Part shown: piece after piece, positions 1-7,109 of the stretch
Position numbering within the stretch: the first letter of the stretch is position 1
Layout: each line of letters opens with the position of its first letter
From: a virus
Taxonomy: Duplodnaviria; Heunggongvirae; Uroviricota; Caudoviricetes
Virus record (IMG/VR): IMGVR_UViG_2737471848_000001
Span: 1 to 7,109 of that record
Strand: one strand, 5' to 3'
Length of the DNA stretch: 7,109 nucleotides
Made by a program: the position numbers and the translations under genes
The notes under the pieces: generated by a model
Databases searched by the model: none
Told to the model about the DNA's origin: nothing
The model's input: the letters and a program-made list of their open reading frames with translations, nothing else

Positions 1-82
1 AGTCATATTCGCCCTGACTTTCCAGAACCATACGAACTGCCCGTTGACGGACCTCGGGGGAAAAACGTGTATTTTTAGTCAT
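1..82 (-). CDS. IS3-family transposase OrfA, N-terminal 27 codons only (3' end off-window)
   Basis: ATG at 82..80 with AAGAGG 9 nt upstream; translation MTKNTRFSPEVRQRAVRMVLESQGEYD matches the N-terminus of IS629/IS1203-group OrfA as I recall it. Open to the window edge. Confidence 0.75.
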   Translation of the reverse strand, partial: MTKNTRFSPEVRQRAVRMVLESQGEYD

Positions 83-136
83 CCTGTTTACCTCTTTCTC
101 AGGGAGTTTAGTCTCCAGGATTCCCGGGGCGGTTCA
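1..136 (-). mobile_element. IS3-family insertion sequence, IS629/IS1203-like, left end only (terminal inverted repeat plus start of orfA); element continues beyond window start
   Basis: Minus strand from 136 downward reads TGAACCGCCCCGGGAATCCTGGAGACTAAACTCCCTGAGAAAGAGGTAAACAGG-ATG, a TG-initiated terminal inverted repeat followed by a Shine-Dalgarno (AAGAGG) and an ORF. I recognise this as the IS629-type left end from memory, unverified. Confidence 0.8.
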
Positions 137-640
137 GCTCATGTTGTTGGCGTATGTCTGCCCGGCGTTTGCCTGACCTTGCAGCGCACCAAGCCCAACG
201 TTTGCCAGATTGTTGTAATTGCTCATCTGATTTGATAACCAAGACTGACCGAGTGTCGGCGCGATCGTAGCCAGTTGATTGCTTGTGGCTGTCGAACCAA
301 GTCCACCCGTCGCCTCCGCAGCAGCAAGACTCTGGTAACGCGCCTGCCCTGCAAGGTCTTTATACTGCTGAGAGTTGTAATACTGATTAAGTGCCTGCCC
401 CTGACCTTCTAAACTGGAAAGGTTCTGAAGCTGGTTAACATACTGCTCCGCAAGAGGCGTGAACGGAGCAAGGTTTTTCATGATCGTCTGCCACTGCTGA
501 TTTTGCAGGTCTGCGGCATACTTCTGAGCTTCTGCTGCATATTTTGCGCTTTTATCAGAGTTGCCACCTTTCCCGCCTTTTTCAGGGCAATAAGGTTCCT
601 CACCGCGCAGTTTTCTGCCCAGTTTAAATGCATATAACAT
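134..640 (-). CDS. Ejection (E) protein, P22 gp7-position homolog, apparently C-terminally truncated by the IS insertion (168 codons vs about 229 expected)
   Basis: ATG at 640..638 preceded by GGGAGA; sits where gene 7 lies in P22 order (after gene 14). The stop TGA (136..134) is the first three bases of the IS inverted repeat, so the reading frame runs straight into the IS terminus. Confidence 0.7.
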   Translation of the reverse strand: MLYAFKLGRKLRGEEPYCPEKGGKGGNSDKSAKYAAEAQKYAADLQNQQWQTIMKNLAPFTPLAEQYVNQLQNLSSLEGQGQALNQYYNSQQYKDLAGQARYQSLAAAEATGGLGSTATSNQLATIAPTLGQSWLSNQMSNYNNLANVGLGALQGQANAGQTYANNMS

Positions 641-642
641 GG

Positions 643-1098
643 CTATCTCCCGTGATTCAGGAAGTCGATTAGTTCTTCGCGTGTGGCGCTGTAAAACGTC
701 ACGTCATCCACGCCTTTGAAGTATTTCTTGATGGTTCCTACACGCTTAAGGCCAATCATTGCGCAGTACATCTGACCGTGGCGGAATTTGCGTGCAGCGA
801 ACGATGTGACGCACTGAACGGTGGTGTTAGTCAGAATGTATTTCCAGAACTCCAGCCCGATTTCCTTGCTGAATCCACGAACCTCTGGCAGGTACATGGC
901 GTGGCAATCGAATGTAAGCGGCTGAATCTCCTGATAGTAAACAATGCCGCCAAACTGACCGTGCACGTTAACCTCAAAGTAACGGCATTCAGGCTTGTAA
1001 TCGTATCCATCACCGTTGTTGCTCCCGGCAATAATGTCAGGGTGATTTCCTACTGCTTCTATCAGGTCGATGTTTCGCGTTGGTTTGAACTGAATCAT
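643..1098 (-). CDS. P22 gp14-position protein (head/tail assembly-associated), 151 aa
   Basis: ATG at 1098..1096 overlaps the upstream stop (TAATG); GGAG 7 nt upstream; TAG stop at 645..643. Assigned by gene order between tail needle and gp7 and by size, not by direct sequence recognition. Confidence 0.75.
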   Translation of the reverse strand: MIQFKPTRNIDLIEAVGNHPDIIAGSNNGDGYDYKPECRYFEVNVHGQFGGIVYYQEIQPLTFDCHAMYLPEVRGFSKEIGLEFWKYILTNTTVQCVTSFAARKFRHGQMYCAMIGLKRVGTIKKYFKGVDDVTFYSATREELIDFLNHGR

Positions 1099-1946
1099 TA
1101 CTGCTCCGCGATTATCTTGATGGTTGTGGCAGTAAACGCCGCACCATTTGACTGGATGGTTAACGTACTGCCATTTGTGGCAAGAAATCCGTCTTTATCC
1201 ACGCTGAAGAACGTAGCTAACAGGATGTTGTCGGTTGTTGTCGCCGCATTACGACTGCTAACCAGTGTGTCAGGAACAGAGCCGGAAAAGGTTAGCTGCA
1301 TTGACCTGTTGGCGGTTCCGCTGGGCCACGTCCCGACGATCGACAGCTTGAAGAACAAGGTTTTGTTCTCGTTGAACACAACCATCTTGTTGTTAACGGT
1401 ATCGAAGAATGGCGCTAATGTTCCTGATGACGGCGTGAGCGTTTTCAGCAGACTGACAAGGTTGGTCGGCGCTGTCGGGATGGTTACAGATACGCCAGAG
1501 TAAACAACCTCTGACTTCTTGCGAGTAGTGGCATACTCCAGAGCATCGATGCGAGTTTCATGGTCTGAAAGCGTGTTTTGAATGGCGACAACTTCATCCG
1601 TCAGGTAATCAATATCGTTTTCTGCTGTCGTTAATCGTGAGTCAAGGCTGACTATCGCCGCTTCTGCGTTAGTGATCCTTGTTTCGTGGTCCTGTATCTT
1701 CGCTTCAGCTGATGCCAGTCGAATTTCGTGATCAACCAGAATCACATCCTGCTCATCGTTCCTGACTTGTGCGTCATAAGCGCCCTGTCCGGCCTCGTTG
1801 GCCTTGTTAGCCACGTTACCAACATCAGTGCCCTGTGCGATAACGTAAAGCAGATACGACTGCGAGAAGATATTGCGTGGAAGAACTGATGTATCGAGCC
1901 GCGTAGCTTGGATGATTACCGGCACATTGAGATTCGAATCCGCCAT
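1098..1946 (-). CDS. 26: Tail needle / cell-envelope-penetrating plug protein (P22 gp26 family), 282 aa, with Sf6-like C-terminal knob-type domain
   Basis: N-terminus [43 protein letters not shown] resembles the gp26 N-terminal domain that docks onto gp10; central heptad-like repeats (DHEIRL..DHETRI..DHETRI); C-terminal about 140 aa Ser/Thr-rich beta-type region unlike P22 gp26. ATG overlaps gp10 stop (TAATG), AAGGA SD. Confidence 0.88.
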
Positions 1947-3364
1947 TACTCAATCCTTATCTGGCAGCCAGACAGAGTGACTGGTGACTTCGTGATAACG
2001 CGCAATTTGAAGCCGACATTTTTCCTGATGCGCCCTACTCGTTTCCACAAAACGCGTTTGTCGTAAACGAACGGTTCATTCTGCTCAATCATCTGCTCAC
2101 GTCCGTAATTGATGCCGTCAGTGGTTGCAGAGAGGAACAGTCGGTCGGCGTACTGCGCAACGCCAGTTGACGATTCAACCTCAAGGTCGAAAACTCTGGC
2201 GTTATCTGCTTTGAAGAGTGGAGTAAACAGCAGGTGTTCCTGCTGCTTGTCGTACTGGCTGCTGATATCGAACTGCAATTTCCCGGTCACGGACTCCAGC
2301 TTATCGCCGCACGTTATCTGATTGCCTTCGTAAATGAAGTCGATAGCGCGGTACACATCGTCATACAGGCCTGTTTTCAGCACACACCATTGCGGACCAT
2401 TGGCGCTTGAAGATGCGTCGTAAACAAGAACATGGCGCGGAAGGTGGATAATCAGCAGCTCATGCGCATCAAATCGCAGAGACTCCATCACGCCATCAGC
2501 CAGTTCATCAGCAGTGTAGGAGCGTAGTATTTTCTCAATGCTCGCGCTGGCGATTGGTGATACCTGACCGGAGCCGATGATATACACAGACGGCGCACCT
2601 GTTGCCGGATTGCTGATGAACGCATAAGAATCAGCGAATGGCGTTTTGCAGTAAGTCCCGGCAATACCTTTCTGCACCATCAGCGATGGTTGTGCAACAT
2701 ACAAAGCGGCACCAACGGTGGTTGCACCAGTCAGGGAGAAATATTCAATCGTCGATGAACCAAAGCAGACGATGAAATCTCGCCATGTGCCGATACCGAT
2801 TATTCCGTCAGGCTGTGATTCTGCCCGATATTGTGCGCTGTAGCGGTCAGGATGCGATTCGTCTTCAAGGTCAGTGATAAACCATGAATCGGTGCCGTCT
2901 TTTGACCACGCATAACGCCCACGTAATCGCGTAATGTCGCGGACTGAGCCTAACTCATACTGCGTGAATCCGCTGTCTGCAGGCCAGTTTGAGACGGTTT
3001 TAACCGTGCCATCATAGCGATACTCGACCAGTTGACCATTAACGCCTACAGCCTGAGATGTCCGACCATGAGCCATTGATACGCGACCACTTCCGGAAAC
3101 ATCACCGACTTCGCTTTCGCCCTTATACAGCTTGCCACCACACACGCGATAAACAGCATTCTGCGCCATGTTGTACTCGACGCCTCGTGATACACCGTTC
3201 ACATCAGAACGTTTGGCAATGCCCGGGAATGAGCGAAGATATCCGCTGCTGTTCAGGATTTCTTTGGGTGTAGCCAACATATTCACTGGCAGATAGTCGA
3301 TATAGTCGGCGTTTCGAAAGTCTTTGCCGACACCTTTCATAAGCGGAAGTTGCTGAATCGGCAT
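1946..3364 (-). CDS. 10: Tail accessory factor / tail hub protein (P22 gp10 family), 472 aa
   Basis: 472-aa ORF, same length as P22 gp10 and strongly similar as I recall it (MPIQQLP...); located between gp4 and gp26 homologs; GGGAG SD; stop-start junction TAAATG with gp4. Confidence 0.92.
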
Positions 3365-3865
3365 TTATTCGCTCCCGTTATCGCAAGGTTCCTTCCGGTG
3401 GAAGTAATTCCAACCGTTCCACTTCGCCAACTGATTACCGCTACCAACAGGCATACGGTTTGGATAACCGGACTTACATTTTGCGGCTTTTGCTCTGTCC
3501 ATTGCAGACAGTTTGACGAGTCGCTCTTTCCCGTATCTGGCAGTGGTTATAAGTTTTGCAGACGCTTCCAGCGCATAATCCGGAGCAATGCGGCAGGCAA
3601 GGTTGAAAATGACGGCATTGATAGCGTTATTTGATAAACCGTGTTTATCGCCAGGATCTGGAGCGACATCTGCATCAGCGAAAATGTAGCCAACGTTGAT
3701 ACCTGGTGACGCATCACCGCCAAGCCATTCAGCCATCATCATTTCAAGGTCGTTAACGCCGTCTTCCATAGACTGCGGTTCGACATCGGTTAACGTGGCA
3801 TTTGATGCCACACCGAGCTTACGTAATGCCGCAAGAACTAAATCACCCTTCGTTGTCAGGTTCAT
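3365..3865 (-). CDS. 4: Head completion / tail accessory factor (P22 gp4 family), 166 aa
   Basis: Preferred start ATG 3865..3863 (AAGG upstream) gives 166 aa beginning [33 protein letters not shown], matching the gp4 N-terminus and length. An in-frame upstream ATG at 3928 would give 187 aa. Confidence 0.85.
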
Positions 3866-4067
3866 CTGCTGCCGCCTTAGGTTTTCGACCAGGCTTTTTA
3901 CGCTGTTTTTCTTCTGGCTCTGCAACATCCTTCAAAAGGTCATCAGGATGTGAAAACCAGCCAGCATCCAGATATTCCTGAAGCTCTTCGGCTTTCACGA
4001 TTTCAAAGTCGTATCCAACGCCTTTCCATTTCTTCATGTCTCCATGACGAAAGATCATGTGTGTCAT
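3843..4067 (-). CDS. Small hypothetical protein (74 aa) between coat and gp4; same position as the extra small gene of Sf6-type late operons; function unknown
   Basis: ATG at 4067..4065 with GGAGA 5 nt upstream; acidic body and Lys/Arg/Pro-rich C-terminus ([23 protein letters not shown]); 3' end overlaps the gp4 start by 23 nt. The ORF-track version starts at a GTG at 4115, which I reject. Confidence 0.55.
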
Positions 4068-4079
4068 GCTTGTCTCCAG

Positions 4080-4106
4080 ATAAAAAAGGGAGCCGAAGCT
4101 CCCTCT
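4080..4106 (-). terminator. Rho-independent terminator-like hairpin immediately downstream of the coat gene
   Basis: Minus strand: AGAGGGAGC-TTCG-GCTCCCTTTTTTAT, a GC-rich 6-9 bp stem with a UUCG tetraloop followed by a 6-T run; begins 5 nt after the coat stop codon. Confidence 0.6.
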
Positions 4107-4111
4107 GGTTA

Positions 4112-5407
4112 TCACGCGGTCTGGTTAGGCAGACCAACACCAATTGCCTCTGGTCGTACAGCACATGCTGAATACCACACAGCAATACGGCACTTACCAG
4201 ACAGAGTGTTGATATCACCCTGCGTTGCGAAGATGCCGTTAACACCAATACCAGGAATGCTGAAGGAAGACGTTTTCATGCCAGCAAACAGTTCATGGGT
4301 TACCGGGATCGGCTGAGACAGAAGGCGGATTGAGTCATCAGCCCAGAACACGTTAGCGGTGGTTGTTGCCACGTTCAGAACGTTTACCGGAGTGGTATCA
4401 GCAAGAGAGGTGTTTACGTTAGCGTAAGCCTTCTCTTCTTTTGTCAGTGACGCGTCATCCAGTGCAATCGGTTTCGGCGTGATTTCGATGTGAGTACCAT
4501 CGATCACACGGGTGATTGAGAAAGTAGCATCATCAGTCAGCACGTTCTTCGCCATCTGAGACAGGAATTTCACACCAGTGAAACTGATTTTGTCGCCGCG
4601 CTTAAATCCGGTGGTGGAGGATACGGTCACCGTTGCAACACGGTTGTCGACGTTCTCTTTGTTACCATCGGTATCAAGGGTGTATGCCTGCGGCTTAAAC
4701 TTCTGCGCACCAGAAACAGTTACACCAGTAGCGGTTGACTTGGTAACTGCCGGAAGTTTCGGTGAGCGAAGAATTTCATCAAAGCCAGCAATCTGACGCT
4801 GAATAGTACCGTTGCGATACGCTTCTTCAGGAACGCGCCCGAAGATGTCACCATCTACCAGGTTGCGGCCTGCTTTACGGTAATCGTCAGGGTTCAGGAA
4901 GTAACTGATGCCCATATCGCGGTTTAGCTCACGGGAGAACATCAGGCGCTCTGCATCAGACACAAAATCCCAGCCAGACAGGCCAGTAGATGGACCAATT
5001 GCGCGGGTATCGTGAACAACAAGCGAGCCCATTTCAGTTGCCTGTTTGGCAATCGCTGACTCAATGTTATTCGCCAGTTTTTTGGCGGATGCTTGGATGC
5101 GGCGACGGTAAGAACGCTCATCACGCAGGTCATCTGCACGAAGCTCGAAGAAATCGTTATCCGGATCGCCCATGTTGCATTTCACGGAGAGTTCCAGAAT
5201 CCCGGTTGCGTTGCCAGTTAAATCCCAGCCAGTCTGGGTTGGCGCTTCCTGCTCAACAGGCATCCACACGGTGTTGCTTGAACGCTGCATGGATTCTGCC
5301 GGAGGGGTGTATTTTGTCACTTTTGACGCCATTGGCGTCAGGTTCTGGACGGTTTCGATGATTTCATCCAGAGCATACGTGACCAGTTGACCTTCATTTA
5401 ATGCCAT
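4112..5407 (-). CDS. 5: Major capsid (coat) protein, P22 gp5 type, 431 aa
   Basis: Full-length similarity to P22 coat protein as I recall it (MALNEGQ..., ...[10 protein letters not shown]..., ...[12 protein letters not shown]); AAGGAA SD; start overlaps scaffold stop (TAATG); TGA stop at 4114..4112. Confidence 0.95.
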
Positions 5408-6318
5408 TATCGAATTCCTTTATTCAGTTGCGCCTTGAGCTTGCGGTATGTCTCTACATCCCCTTTGTTTGCTGCCGCTTCCATCTGCCTTTCAATCGCA
5501 GAGATATTTGCAGCAACAGCGTGTCCATGAATGGGTTCATCAGGTAACGGGGCTTCTGAAACAGGCTTGGCTCGAGGCTTGAGAGTTAAACGTTCTGACA
5601 GTCGAGTGAGTTCAATCAGCGCGGATTGCCCGTTCATCGCCAGCAACTGGCGTGTTTTCTCAGGATTAGCACCAAGGTGATACATGAGAGCGGCGGATTT
5701 CTCCGGGAAGAGGCGCATGATGTCGGCACCGACTGCTGGCGGCACCAGTTGCATGAATGCATCCTCTTTCTCCTGATAGTCAGGGATATTGAGCTTTTCC
5801 GCTGCGTCGTAGTGCTTACGGGCTGCCTCGACGTATTGCGCTGATTGCTGGGTGAACTCCTGAGTTTTGCGACCCTGCTCGGCGACAGCCTGGCTTCGTG
5901 CGTCCATAGCCTTGATCTGCCATTCACTGTTTGCCTGCTGGAAGGCGGCCAGTGCGCGGCTCTGGTCATAGTCGTACTTAGCCAGTGCATCTTCGGAAAG
6001 ATAATCGTTAGGGTCTGGTTGTTTTGGTAACTCAGGGTTCACCCGCAGGTGCTCCGGCAATTCTCCACGCTTAACCGCTTCCATCTGCTGCTCAAGCTCA
6101 CGCTGGCGTTTGCGTTCGATGCGGCGACGGGCAAATTCAGCATTAGTTGCCGGGTCTTGTTTTGGTTTCTCATCGTCTTTCAGGACAATCTCGAAGCCTT
6201 CTTCCTGACCTGCGCTGTCGTTGGCATTATCGACAACTAAGCCATCAGCAGATGCCGCTGCATGATTGCCGGGCAGGGTTAATTCTTCAGAAGCCTGAAT
6301 GTCGGTGGTTTGGTCCAT
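5407..6318 (-). CDS. 8: Scaffolding protein, P22 gp8 type, 303 aa
   Basis: 303 aa, same length as P22 gp8, with highly similar sequence by recall (e.g. [25 protein letters not shown]-terminal [19 protein letters not shown] coat-binding helix-turn-helix region); immediately upstream of coat. Confidence 0.93.
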
Positions 6319-6331
6319 GATTAACTCTCTC

Positions 6332-7072
6332 TTATTGAGGTGTCTCGGCTACTCCGCCGGAGGGGATTTGAACTTGACGCATAAGATTCGCGAAATCCAT
6401 GCGTTGTGAATGAGTCTGGTCTGCATCTTTAAGAAGCAGCTCAGCGTTAGCACGAGCATCTTTGCTGCGCTGTTGCTGGAATTGACCTACGAGCTTGAGG
6501 TACTCACGCAGTTCTGCCTGCTTGTCGAGGTCCATATTGTTGAAGATTTCCGCAATCTTCGCGGCGTTGAGTTGGTTTTGGGCTTCAACCTTGGCGGCTT
6601 CAACCTGAATCTGCGCCTGTTGGTTCTCTGCCTTGAGCAATTCAGCCTGACCTTGCAGAAGGATACCCTGCGCCTGAATTTGCTCTGCTGATGGCTGCTG
6701 CGGCTGCTGTTGAGCCTGCTGTACCATCTCCATCTCTTCAGGTGTTTCTGGTTTCTTCAGCCCCATCATCACCAGTTGCTTGTTCGCGTACTCTCGCATC
6801 ATCTCGACGCCTTTACCATCAAGCAGCGTGAAGTATTGCAGCATCAGCATCTGGAACTCTGGAGTACCTTGTGGAACCTTGGTGAGTAACTCCTGAATCT
6901 CTGCGCGGTTCTGTTCCTTCATACTCTGGAAGGATGGTCCAACGTCCGTATAGCACTCATAGCGACCGCGAATGTCGTTGAGTGTGACCACATTGCCGGA
7001 CTGGTAATCGACAACTTGCGCATAGAGTTGAACGTCTTTCTCGCTTCCATCTTCAAGTGTCAGCGTTACATG
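6332..7072 (-). CDS. 1: Portal protein (P22 gp1 type), C-terminal portion only; 5' end not present in window
   Basis: Frame open from 7072 to stop TAA at 6334..6332; Gln/Ala/Glu-rich C-terminal region ending ...SGGVAETPQ, consistent with the long C-terminal helical barrel of the P22 portal; directly upstream of scaffold. The ORF-track start at 6991 is an internal GTG, not the real start. Confidence 0.85.
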
Positions 7073-7090
7073 TCACGAACGGTGCAATAG

Positions 7091-7109
7091 CTGTCTCTTA
7101 TACACATCT
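7091..7109. other. Tn5/Nextera mosaic-end adapter sequence (CTGTCTCTTATACACATCT), library artefact at contig end
   Basis: Exact 19-nt match to the reverse complement of the Tn5 mosaic end AGATGTGTATAAGAGACAG at the very end of the window. Confidence 0.9.

Follow-up and report, generated by a model that had tools for sequence, protein, structure and literature searches.

An ORF69-type gene linked to the head-to-tail adaptor gene in the late operon of a P22-like phage

A small gene between coat and adaptor

The stretch of viral DNA analysed here (7,109 nucleotides (nt); IMG/VR record IMGVR_UViG_2737471848_000001, positions 1 to 7,109; below, the window) contains a small open reading frame (ORF) on its minus strand, between the gene for a P22-type coat protein and gp4, the homologue of the P22 head-to-tail adaptor gene. 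We find that this small ORF is a genuine gene of the late operon, coding for a protein, and that, judged by its sequence, it is the orthologue of ORF69 of phage P22. That it is genuine, belongs to the ORF69 family and is linked to the adaptor gene is, taken jointly, close to certain. The gene itself has long been annotated in P22 as ORF69 and is thus already known; as it stands it is ordinary, conserved and uncharacterised. The features on which the description rests are the following.

4112-5407, minus strand: P22-type coat gene (PF11651, E = 3e-166), upstream neighbour of the small ORF
4114-4112, minus strand: stop codon TGA of the coat gene
4082-4106, minus strand: terminator-like hairpin after the coat gene, with a 9-bp stem, a UUCG loop and a U-run
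4073-4077, minus strand: Shine-Dalgarno sequence GGAGA of the small ORF, 5 nt ahead of its ATG
3843-4067, minus strand: small ORF of 74 amino acids plus stop (ATG at 4067-4065, TGA at 3845-3843), P22 ORF69 orthologue by sequence and member of PHROG 1175
3365-3865, minus strand: adaptor gene gp4, the P22 gp4 homologue, 166 amino acids (PF11650, E = 2e-58)

The hairpin, AGAGGGAGC-UUCG-GCUCCCUUU, occupies positions 4106-4085, and its U-run reaches 4082. Its RNA fold has a z-score of -2.9, with equally good folding in 1 of 200 shuffles, and in a terminator scan of the region, which returned four terminator-like sites against 1.4 expected, it was the sole one on the coding strand. Sf6 and phage L carry an annotated 't coat' terminator in the same place. 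A 90-codon version of the ORF starting from the GTG at 4115 was rejected, as it crosses the hairpin and is conserved by no family alignment. The first-pass annotation had described a 74-codon frame with its own GGAGA directly behind a terminator-like hairpin, and this description stands, the translation being exactly the 74 residues given there.

As evidenced by the substitution pattern, the frame is under selection as protein. In a set consisting of the window and eight relatives (from Escherichia, Citrobacter, Kluyvera, Buttiauxella and an Enterobacteriaceae genome), the ratio of nonsynonymous to synonymous differences (pN/pS) over codons 1-47 is 0.16 in frame versus 2.4 and 1.5 in the shifted frames, and pairwise values of omega, the corresponding ratio of rates, are 0.04-0.13 at a synonymous divergence (dS) of 1-2. 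The reading frame is intact in all relatives, and differences in length are solely multiples of 6 nt. The profile of PHROG 1175 matches with E = 5.6e-37, residues 1-72 aligning to profile positions 1-72 of 72. Homologues form 329 clusters at 90% identity, and the gene is carried by 217 of 5426 complete E. coli genomes, where every listed match overlies a coding sequence annotated 'hypothetical protein'; the small ORF is 100% identical to a prophage gene of E. coli EC38. Note that two RefSeq assemblies labelled E. coli DH5alpha (H100 and H101) unexpectedly carry the gene at 98% identity. A conserved, functionally undefined gene between coat and gp4, which the first-pass annotation had proposed to verify by its synonymous-site pattern, is therefore what we find.

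Characterised homologues did not emerge from the databases. NCBIfam gave no match for the protein, the Pfam family DUF7302 (PF23976) reached 15.5 bits (E = 0.023, residues 30-73) against a gathering threshold of 24.9 bits, and weak matches to the same family were seen in 7 of 43 relatives, the best at E = 5e-4. The Protein Data Bank (PDB) returned nothing by sequence, whether the single protein or the family profile served as query, and the AlphaFold2 (AF2) model of the protein found no structural match there.

The first-pass annotation had stated that P22 itself has no gene in this place, which is wrong: the P22 record AF217253 annotates ORF69 (69 amino acids; AAF75048.1) between genes 5 and 4. 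Its product and the window protein share 33% identity over their full length, from Met1 to the tail (alignment MKIAIYKPGGSIMVWGVMAQMKVIDSSELPEYVKDGWLDHPSKLLPVEADDVKPRKGRKPKAVSDADKD). Like the window gene, ORF69 occupies the slot between the coat gene and gene 4 and overlaps gene 4 out of frame, and both proteins combine an N-terminal domain, an acidic or proline-rich spacer and a K-x-G-R-K-P-K tail in the same order, although the spacer of ORF69 reads 'PVEADDV' instead of a Glu-Pro (EP) repeat. Further relatives of ORF69 and PHROG 1175 are orf186 of phage L and ST64T (phrog_3769), gene 6 of Sf6 and hkbT of HK620. The phage L/ST64T orf186 product has the same slot, the same N-terminal domain and a similar tail, but differs by an inserted WDGH domain (PF25311). 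Sf6 gene 6, with the same slot and layout as the window ORF and an hhalign probability of 63%, is probably a distant homologue; the extra small gene of Sf6-type late operons to which the first-pass annotation had pointed is this one.

The constancy of the downstream neighbour is the second main result. At every locus with a readable neighbour the gene following the family member is a head-to-tail adaptor gene; this count leaves out the short contigs L029, L031, L033 and L035, which ended before the downstream gene was identifiable. The adaptor belongs to PF11650 in phages with P22-, Sf6- or CUS-3-type coats and likewise in the distant metagenomic phages L010, L011, L028, L030, L032 and L034, and to PF24175 (SU10_adaptor) in L019. 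In all loci examined, from the P22-like relatives outward, the family member keeps its position ahead of the adaptor gene with a stop-to-start spacing of -26 to +3 nt, while in L010 and L019 other genes stand between it and the capsid gene. The invariant partner is therefore the adaptor gene and not the coat gene. The synteny was also examined in reverse, taking adaptor homologues in remote phages as the starting point and inspecting the gene just upstream. This gene has the same N-terminal domain in Vibrio phage 1.090.B (E = 2.5e-9), Escherichia phage Sortsne (E = 1.4e-9) and Pseudomonas phage AH02 (E = 3.3e-11; each in a six-sequence search), and the C-terminal parts of the three relatives are very different.

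In the window the two genes are physically interlocked, a feature missed in the first-pass annotation. The ATG of gp4 lies at 3865-3863, and the last 23 nt of the small ORF overlap the start of gp4 in the +1 frame; the corresponding overlap is 17 nt in P22 and 26 nt in Sf6. The AAGG within codons K64-A65 (3875-3878) is the Shine-Dalgarno sequence of gp4, and because it lies within them the codons CCT-AAG-GCG are nearly invariant at the DNA level.

The overlap has consequences for annotation. Ahead of the gp4 start the +1 frame meets no stop codon across the GAGCCA repeat of the small ORF (MLQSQ(SQ)...), and this is the cause of the over-long gp4 in the GenBank records of IME10, Dewey and Louie, in which the small ORF is lost or truncated. 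PGAP (the NCBI annotation pipeline) and the P22 record place the start of gp4 at the conserved MNLTT/MQIKT methionine, and the extension is probably not translated.

3866-3928, minus strand: upstream extension of the gp4 frame (21 residues), open by chance
L002 3062-3655, L004 1565-2152 and L005 1566-2171: over-long gp4 frames in relatives

Architecture of the protein and its resemblance to putative DNA-binding modules

The product is a three-part protein, in which an acidic beta-hairpin/helix domain is followed by a (Glu-Pro)n spacer and a basic KKPGRKPK tail; a short acidic end completes the chain.

3924-4067, minus strand: N-terminal acidic globular domain, residues 1-48, delimited by the AF2 model, invariant columns and an omega of ~0.1
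3909-3923, minus strand: spacer AEPEE, with one copy of the GAGCCA hexanucleotide at 3915-3920
3876-3908, minus strand: basic AT-hook-like tail, residues 54-64, conserved at the protein level
3843-3875, minus strand: acidic C-terminal end (10 residues) plus stop, largely read-through into the gp4 start region

The net charges of these parts are -4 for residues 1-48, -3 for residues 49-53, +7 for residues 54-64 and -4 for the last 10 residues. They bear out the acidic core and basic tail of the first-pass annotation, and the tail does resemble, in composition, a peptide of the nucleic-acid-binding type, as had been suggested there. An AF2 model computed from a 43-sequence alignment has a predicted local distance difference test score (pLDDT) of ~89 for residues 1-40, ~71 for residues 41-50 and below 50 for the tail, which is thus predicted to be disordered. 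The predicted elements of the N-terminal domain are a beta-hairpin (2-14/17-25), a helix (26-34), a turn at G36-W37, P41 and a second helix (41-48); G36, W37 and P41 are invariant in the family alignments.

The spacer is encoded by a GAGCCA repeat, and its length shifts freely through slippage of this repeat. Among 128 cluster representatives n ranges from 1 to 12, with modes at 2 and 4, and the window, with n = 1, has the shortest allele. Weak Pfam matches of the spacer, to TonB_N (the polyproline region of TonB) and to the procyclin EP repeat, fit an extended conformation. In the tail, the motif K-K-P-G-[RP]-K-P-K is retained across synonymous codon changes. The acidic end is absent from the Citrobacter and Kluyvera relatives, which stop at ...KPKG, 3 nt ahead of the ATG of gp4. 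In one E. coli protein of 93 amino acids (P0004) a 13-residue segment is duplicated internally in tandem, perhaps as an artefact of the assembly, perhaps as a duplication that is tolerated.

Remote homologues were sought among 1.84 billion representative proteins. Besides small homologues, this search yielded GIY-YIG and HNH homing endonucleases that matched the N-terminal domain in four to five stretches each (E = 3e-6 to 5e-4), and the matched stretches correspond to a repeated unit of their C-terminal DNA-binding arrays, [KR]-x2-Y-I-x-K-D-G-x2-K-x-V-x3-E-L-x2-Y-L-x-D-G-W-x2-G, that is interspersed with NUMOD3 motifs; the proteins bearing this module also have GIY-YIG and NUMOD3. Comparison of the family with the endonuclease module by hhalign gave a probability of 95.9%, over 19 aligned columns only, corresponding to the strand-helix-GW core. 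An AF2 model of the module predicts a hairpin, a helix and a GW-strand per unit, in the same order as in the small ORF. The window domain thus resembles the module in the motif K-x-V-x3-E-L-x2-Y-L-x-D-G-W-x2-G and in the predicted order of elements, but it is present in a single copy, has a longer hairpin and lacks a nuclease domain. We found neither a Pfam model nor a solved structure of the endonuclease module, and DNA contact by the module itself is putative.

The tail, in turn, resembles an AT-hook in being short, disordered and rich in Lys, Arg, Pro and Gly, with a G-R core. Several family members have the canonical AT-hook core RGRPPK in place of PGRKP, and the Pfam AT_hook model gave weak hits in 2 of 43 relatives, the best at E = 0.047. 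Together, the similarity to the endonuclease module and these AT-hook cores point to possible DNA contacts at both ends of the protein.

Two further resemblances were considered and set aside. An H-NS-like reading, prompted by an MvaT hit of the endonuclease model and by a resemblance to G-x4-W-x-G-x-G, was rejected as unsupported. Distant family members (L042 621-917, L044 191-886 and L032 849-1169) carry at their C-terminus a motif of the form 'LG(I/L)K..(R)W...TL...I.E.E'; a reading of such C-termini as helix-extension-helix or SAP domains, which also recalls the N-terminus of lambda gpFI, is a visual impression on which Pfam is silent.

Alleles of the slot and the surrounding late genes

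A second allele of the slot was found at about 1990-2583 in the E. coli prophages L036-L038, with the coat and gp4 types unchanged. Its product of 195 amino acids combines a different subtype of the N-terminal domain with a WDGH domain (PF25311); the EP spacer, the tail and the gp4 start that follow are the same, with 100% nucleotide identity. Because the spacer, the tail and the start of gp4 are shared in this way, the recombination joint is placed at or near the EP repeat. PGAP truncates this allele or flags it as partial, despite an intact full frame. In APSE-1 (L041), an unannotated ORF at about 705-890 on the plus strand resembles Sf6 gene 6 (MERKSVFAWSDNAAGYVQAVIVTRDFPEFEKRGFVSSIDEIKTPEKSQEPKKGKRANDDKTAD) and has the adaptor gene P27 immediately downstream; in the record the opposite strand is annotated instead, as P26. 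A Kluyvera prophage (L023, 2268-2504) contains an additional ORF of 78 amino acids, with no Pfam match, between the coat gene and the small ORF, and this is a truly patchy, moron-like insertion in the slot.

All genes of the window lie on the minus strand and constitute the late structural block of a P22-like phage. Over positions 3300-4500 the window shares 95-98% identity with the phages APC_JM3.2, IME10, Dewey, Bas106, Louie and HZ41, and the late operon is that of a P22-like phage or prophage (Lederbergvirus, IME10/Bas106-type). Besides the genes listed above, the block comprises the following, with two more genes downstream of the tail needle gene; an Rfam scan of the whole window gave no match.

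6332-6991, minus strand: C-terminus of the portal, structural block
5407-6318, minus strand: scaffold gene, structural block
1946-3364, minus strand: gp10 gene
1098-1946, minus strand: tail needle gene

The tail needle gene has 282 codons in the window, equal to the 'tail needle knob' gene of Louie, and only 233 codons (702 bases) in APC_JM3.2, IME10, Dewey and Bas106. This difference marks a mosaic joint among phages that are otherwise 96-98% identical. In close relatives the same structural operon is interrupted at varying points by homing-endonuclease genes (HNH or NUMOD4). In Dewey and Louie these genes separate scaffold from coat, and in two prophages they follow gp10; none is present in the window.

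L002 5202-5723, L004 3693-4220, L038 4499-5032 and L015 6080-6625: homing-endonuclease insertions in relatives

Possible roles and known counterparts

The linkage to the adaptor gene and the resemblance of both protein ends to putative DNA-binding modules raise the question of function. We tentatively propose for the protein the role of a non-structural accessory factor that tethers DNA during head completion or packaging and whose synthesis is translationally coupled to that of gp4; sequence and analogy make this role possible, and we consider it less than probable. The small ORF would be translated from late transcripts that read through the coat terminator, and its ribosomes would be passed directly to the start of the adaptor gene. 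As a tether, the protein would bind DNA in the minor groove with its basic tail, in the fashion of an AT-hook, while the N-terminal domain would have as its target either DNA or, at the portal vertex, a partner in assembly, be it adaptor, portal or terminase. The spacer would do nothing but link the two ends, and on this proposal its length would therefore not be critical. The protein would act after packaging ends and before the adaptor attaches, in parallel to gpFI of phage lambda, to which it corresponds in position and layout.

Several observations weigh against this proposal. The similarity to the endonuclease module spans only those 19 columns, and repeat matches of this kind can be spurious, as shown by P0133, an all-beta repeat protein that is unrelated and yet reached 1e-7 in the search that retrieved the endonucleases. 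The N-terminal domain is net acidic, which is unusual for a DNA binder, and comparison with the H-NS DNA-binding domain was null, with an hhalign probability of 0.2% and no Pfam hit in 43 family members. An AT-hook (PF02178) is defined by an R-G-R-P core with basic flanks and a Pfam score of at least 17.4 bits; the window tail KKPGRKPK has PGRKP rather than RGRP and gave no Pfam hit, and the tails of relatives L016, L017 and L011 are degenerate. Foldseek against BFVD retrieved uncharacterised phage proteins only, and the literature on P22 orf69, orf186/ST64T, Sf6 gp6, NUMOD2, the WDGH domain and DUF7302 yielded no functional data. To our knowledge no essential gene has been placed between genes 5 and 4 on the classical genetic map of P22, and whatever role the protein has is therefore likely an auxiliary one.

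A protein-only partner or chaperone of the adaptor, which would bind gp4 monomers or the portal clip, time the assembly of the ring and contact protein rather than DNA with its tail, would account for the linkage to adaptors of both the PF11650 and the PF24175 family in all loci examined, and the overlap or abutment of stop and start everywhere would ensure near-stoichiometric co-synthesis. It would also fit the observation that tail type tracks gp4 type, the long WDGH-containing allele sharing both at 100% nucleotide identity; however, the two types travel together trivially because the genes overlap physically. Distant relatives moreover exchange the tail for unrelated C-termini while the adaptor family stays constant, and the AT-hook cores and the endonuclease module point to DNA. 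We regard this explanation as rather unlikely. The same genetic arrangement could reflect a cis-acting leader that loads ribosomes behind the coat terminator and, through coupling, determines how much gp4 is made, with a dispensable peptide, and the strong Shine-Dalgarno sequence right after the terminator, that of gp4 embedded in the nearly invariant CCT-AAG-GCG codons and the constant distance of -26 to +3 nt are in line with this. Against it, the omega of ~0.1 in the N-terminal domain and the invariance of G36, W37 and P41 in phages whose synonymous sites are saturated indicate that the amino-acid sequence is under selection. The same domain persists in relatives of 98-231 amino acids and in the WDGH-insertion allele, and a folded domain is superfluous for a leader peptide, so that such a leader has a low probability.

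The label 'moron-like' in the first-pass annotation corresponds to a host-directed or counter-defence factor, for instance a small DNA- or nucleoid-binding protein carried as cargo. A slightly low G+C content (0.46, and 0.43 for the N-terminal domain, versus ~0.50 in neighbouring genes), the allelic replacements in the slot (short and WDGH alleles and the 78-residue insertion in L023) and a weak structural echo of H-NS/MvaT-type domains via the endonuclease module would suit it, but sequence comparison with H-NS gave nothing, a scan found no promoter-like site near the small ORF and PADLOC no match for its protein. Neither is the family patchy: a member is present in every P22-like lineage examined, overlapping the next late gene in the window, and even very distant phages keep it in the same place with respect to the adaptor gene, which is not the behaviour of morons. 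The label is not supported on these grounds, and a host-directed role is improbable. The first-pass annotation had also considered an accessory virion gene. A minor virion or decoration protein on the capsid or portal vertex would be consistent with a gene inside the structural block and with a small domain on an extended proline-rich spacer, which resembles some surface-exposed proteins; virion mass spectrometry of phage L counts nine further unnamed proteins (PMC8022706). The P22 virion proteins listed there (1, 5, 4, 10, 26, 14, 7, 20, 16 and 9) do not include ORF69, nor is the small protein named among those of phage L, and the homologue orf186 is called 'detailed function unknown' there (PMC8022706). 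The virion assignment thus finds no support, and we hold it to be very unlikely.

The proposed tethering factor could be the local instance of something wider. It is doubtful, yet conceivable, that podophages with P22_Tail-4 or SU10-type adaptors widely share a so far unrecognised class of assembly factors linked to the adaptor, made up by the ORF69 family as a whole and acting as such tethers. Its members would combine a module of the homing-endonuclease type, a freely variable spacer and an interchangeable DNA-binding tail, AT-hook-like in enterobacterial phages and, by visual impression, helix-extension-helix-like in Vibrio and Pseudomonas phages, and would keep the end of the packaged DNA, or terminase in complex with DNA, in place at the portal up to the docking of the adaptor.

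Work on podophage assembly takes P22 as its reference, and the gene list of this phage is regarded as complete. Even so, ORF69 has stood as an unexplained frame amid its structural operon since the genome was sequenced, and a packaging or head-completion helper coupled to the adaptor would, if the proposal is right, be a new component in a textbook pathway and provide P22-like phages with a counterpart of lambda gpFI. The annotation is corrected in any case, as several phage records stretch gp4 through the repeat and thereby lose the small ORF. In the literature searched we found no mention of the adaptor linkage across distant podophages or of the similarity to the endonuclease module.

The closest parallel among known systems is found in phage lambda, where the Fi gene is flanked by the capsid gene E and the head-closure gene Fii. 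Its product gpFI is a packaging chaperone, separate from the components of capsid, portal and terminase, that bridges the capsid and the terminase-DNA complex (PMC13595911). The small ORF likewise stands between a major capsid gene and head-completion genes, and both products are small, with a globular domain joined through a flexible acidic linker to a short motif of the nucleic-acid-binding type, which in gpFI gives a weak SAP match; the order of the parts is, however, reversed. Homology was rejected and this, too, counts against the proposed role: hhalign gave a probability of 0.4%, and PF14000 (Packaging_FI), which scores 4.8e-59 with gpFI itself, was found in 0 of 43 family members. Furthermore gpFI is essential in vivo, unlike any P22 gene that we know of in this slot. 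If the reading as a wider class of tethers were true, the ORF69 family would be the functional counterpart of gpFI in the P22 group. The likeness is one of position and layout only, and by this analogy gpFI is the nearest functional analogue of the small protein.

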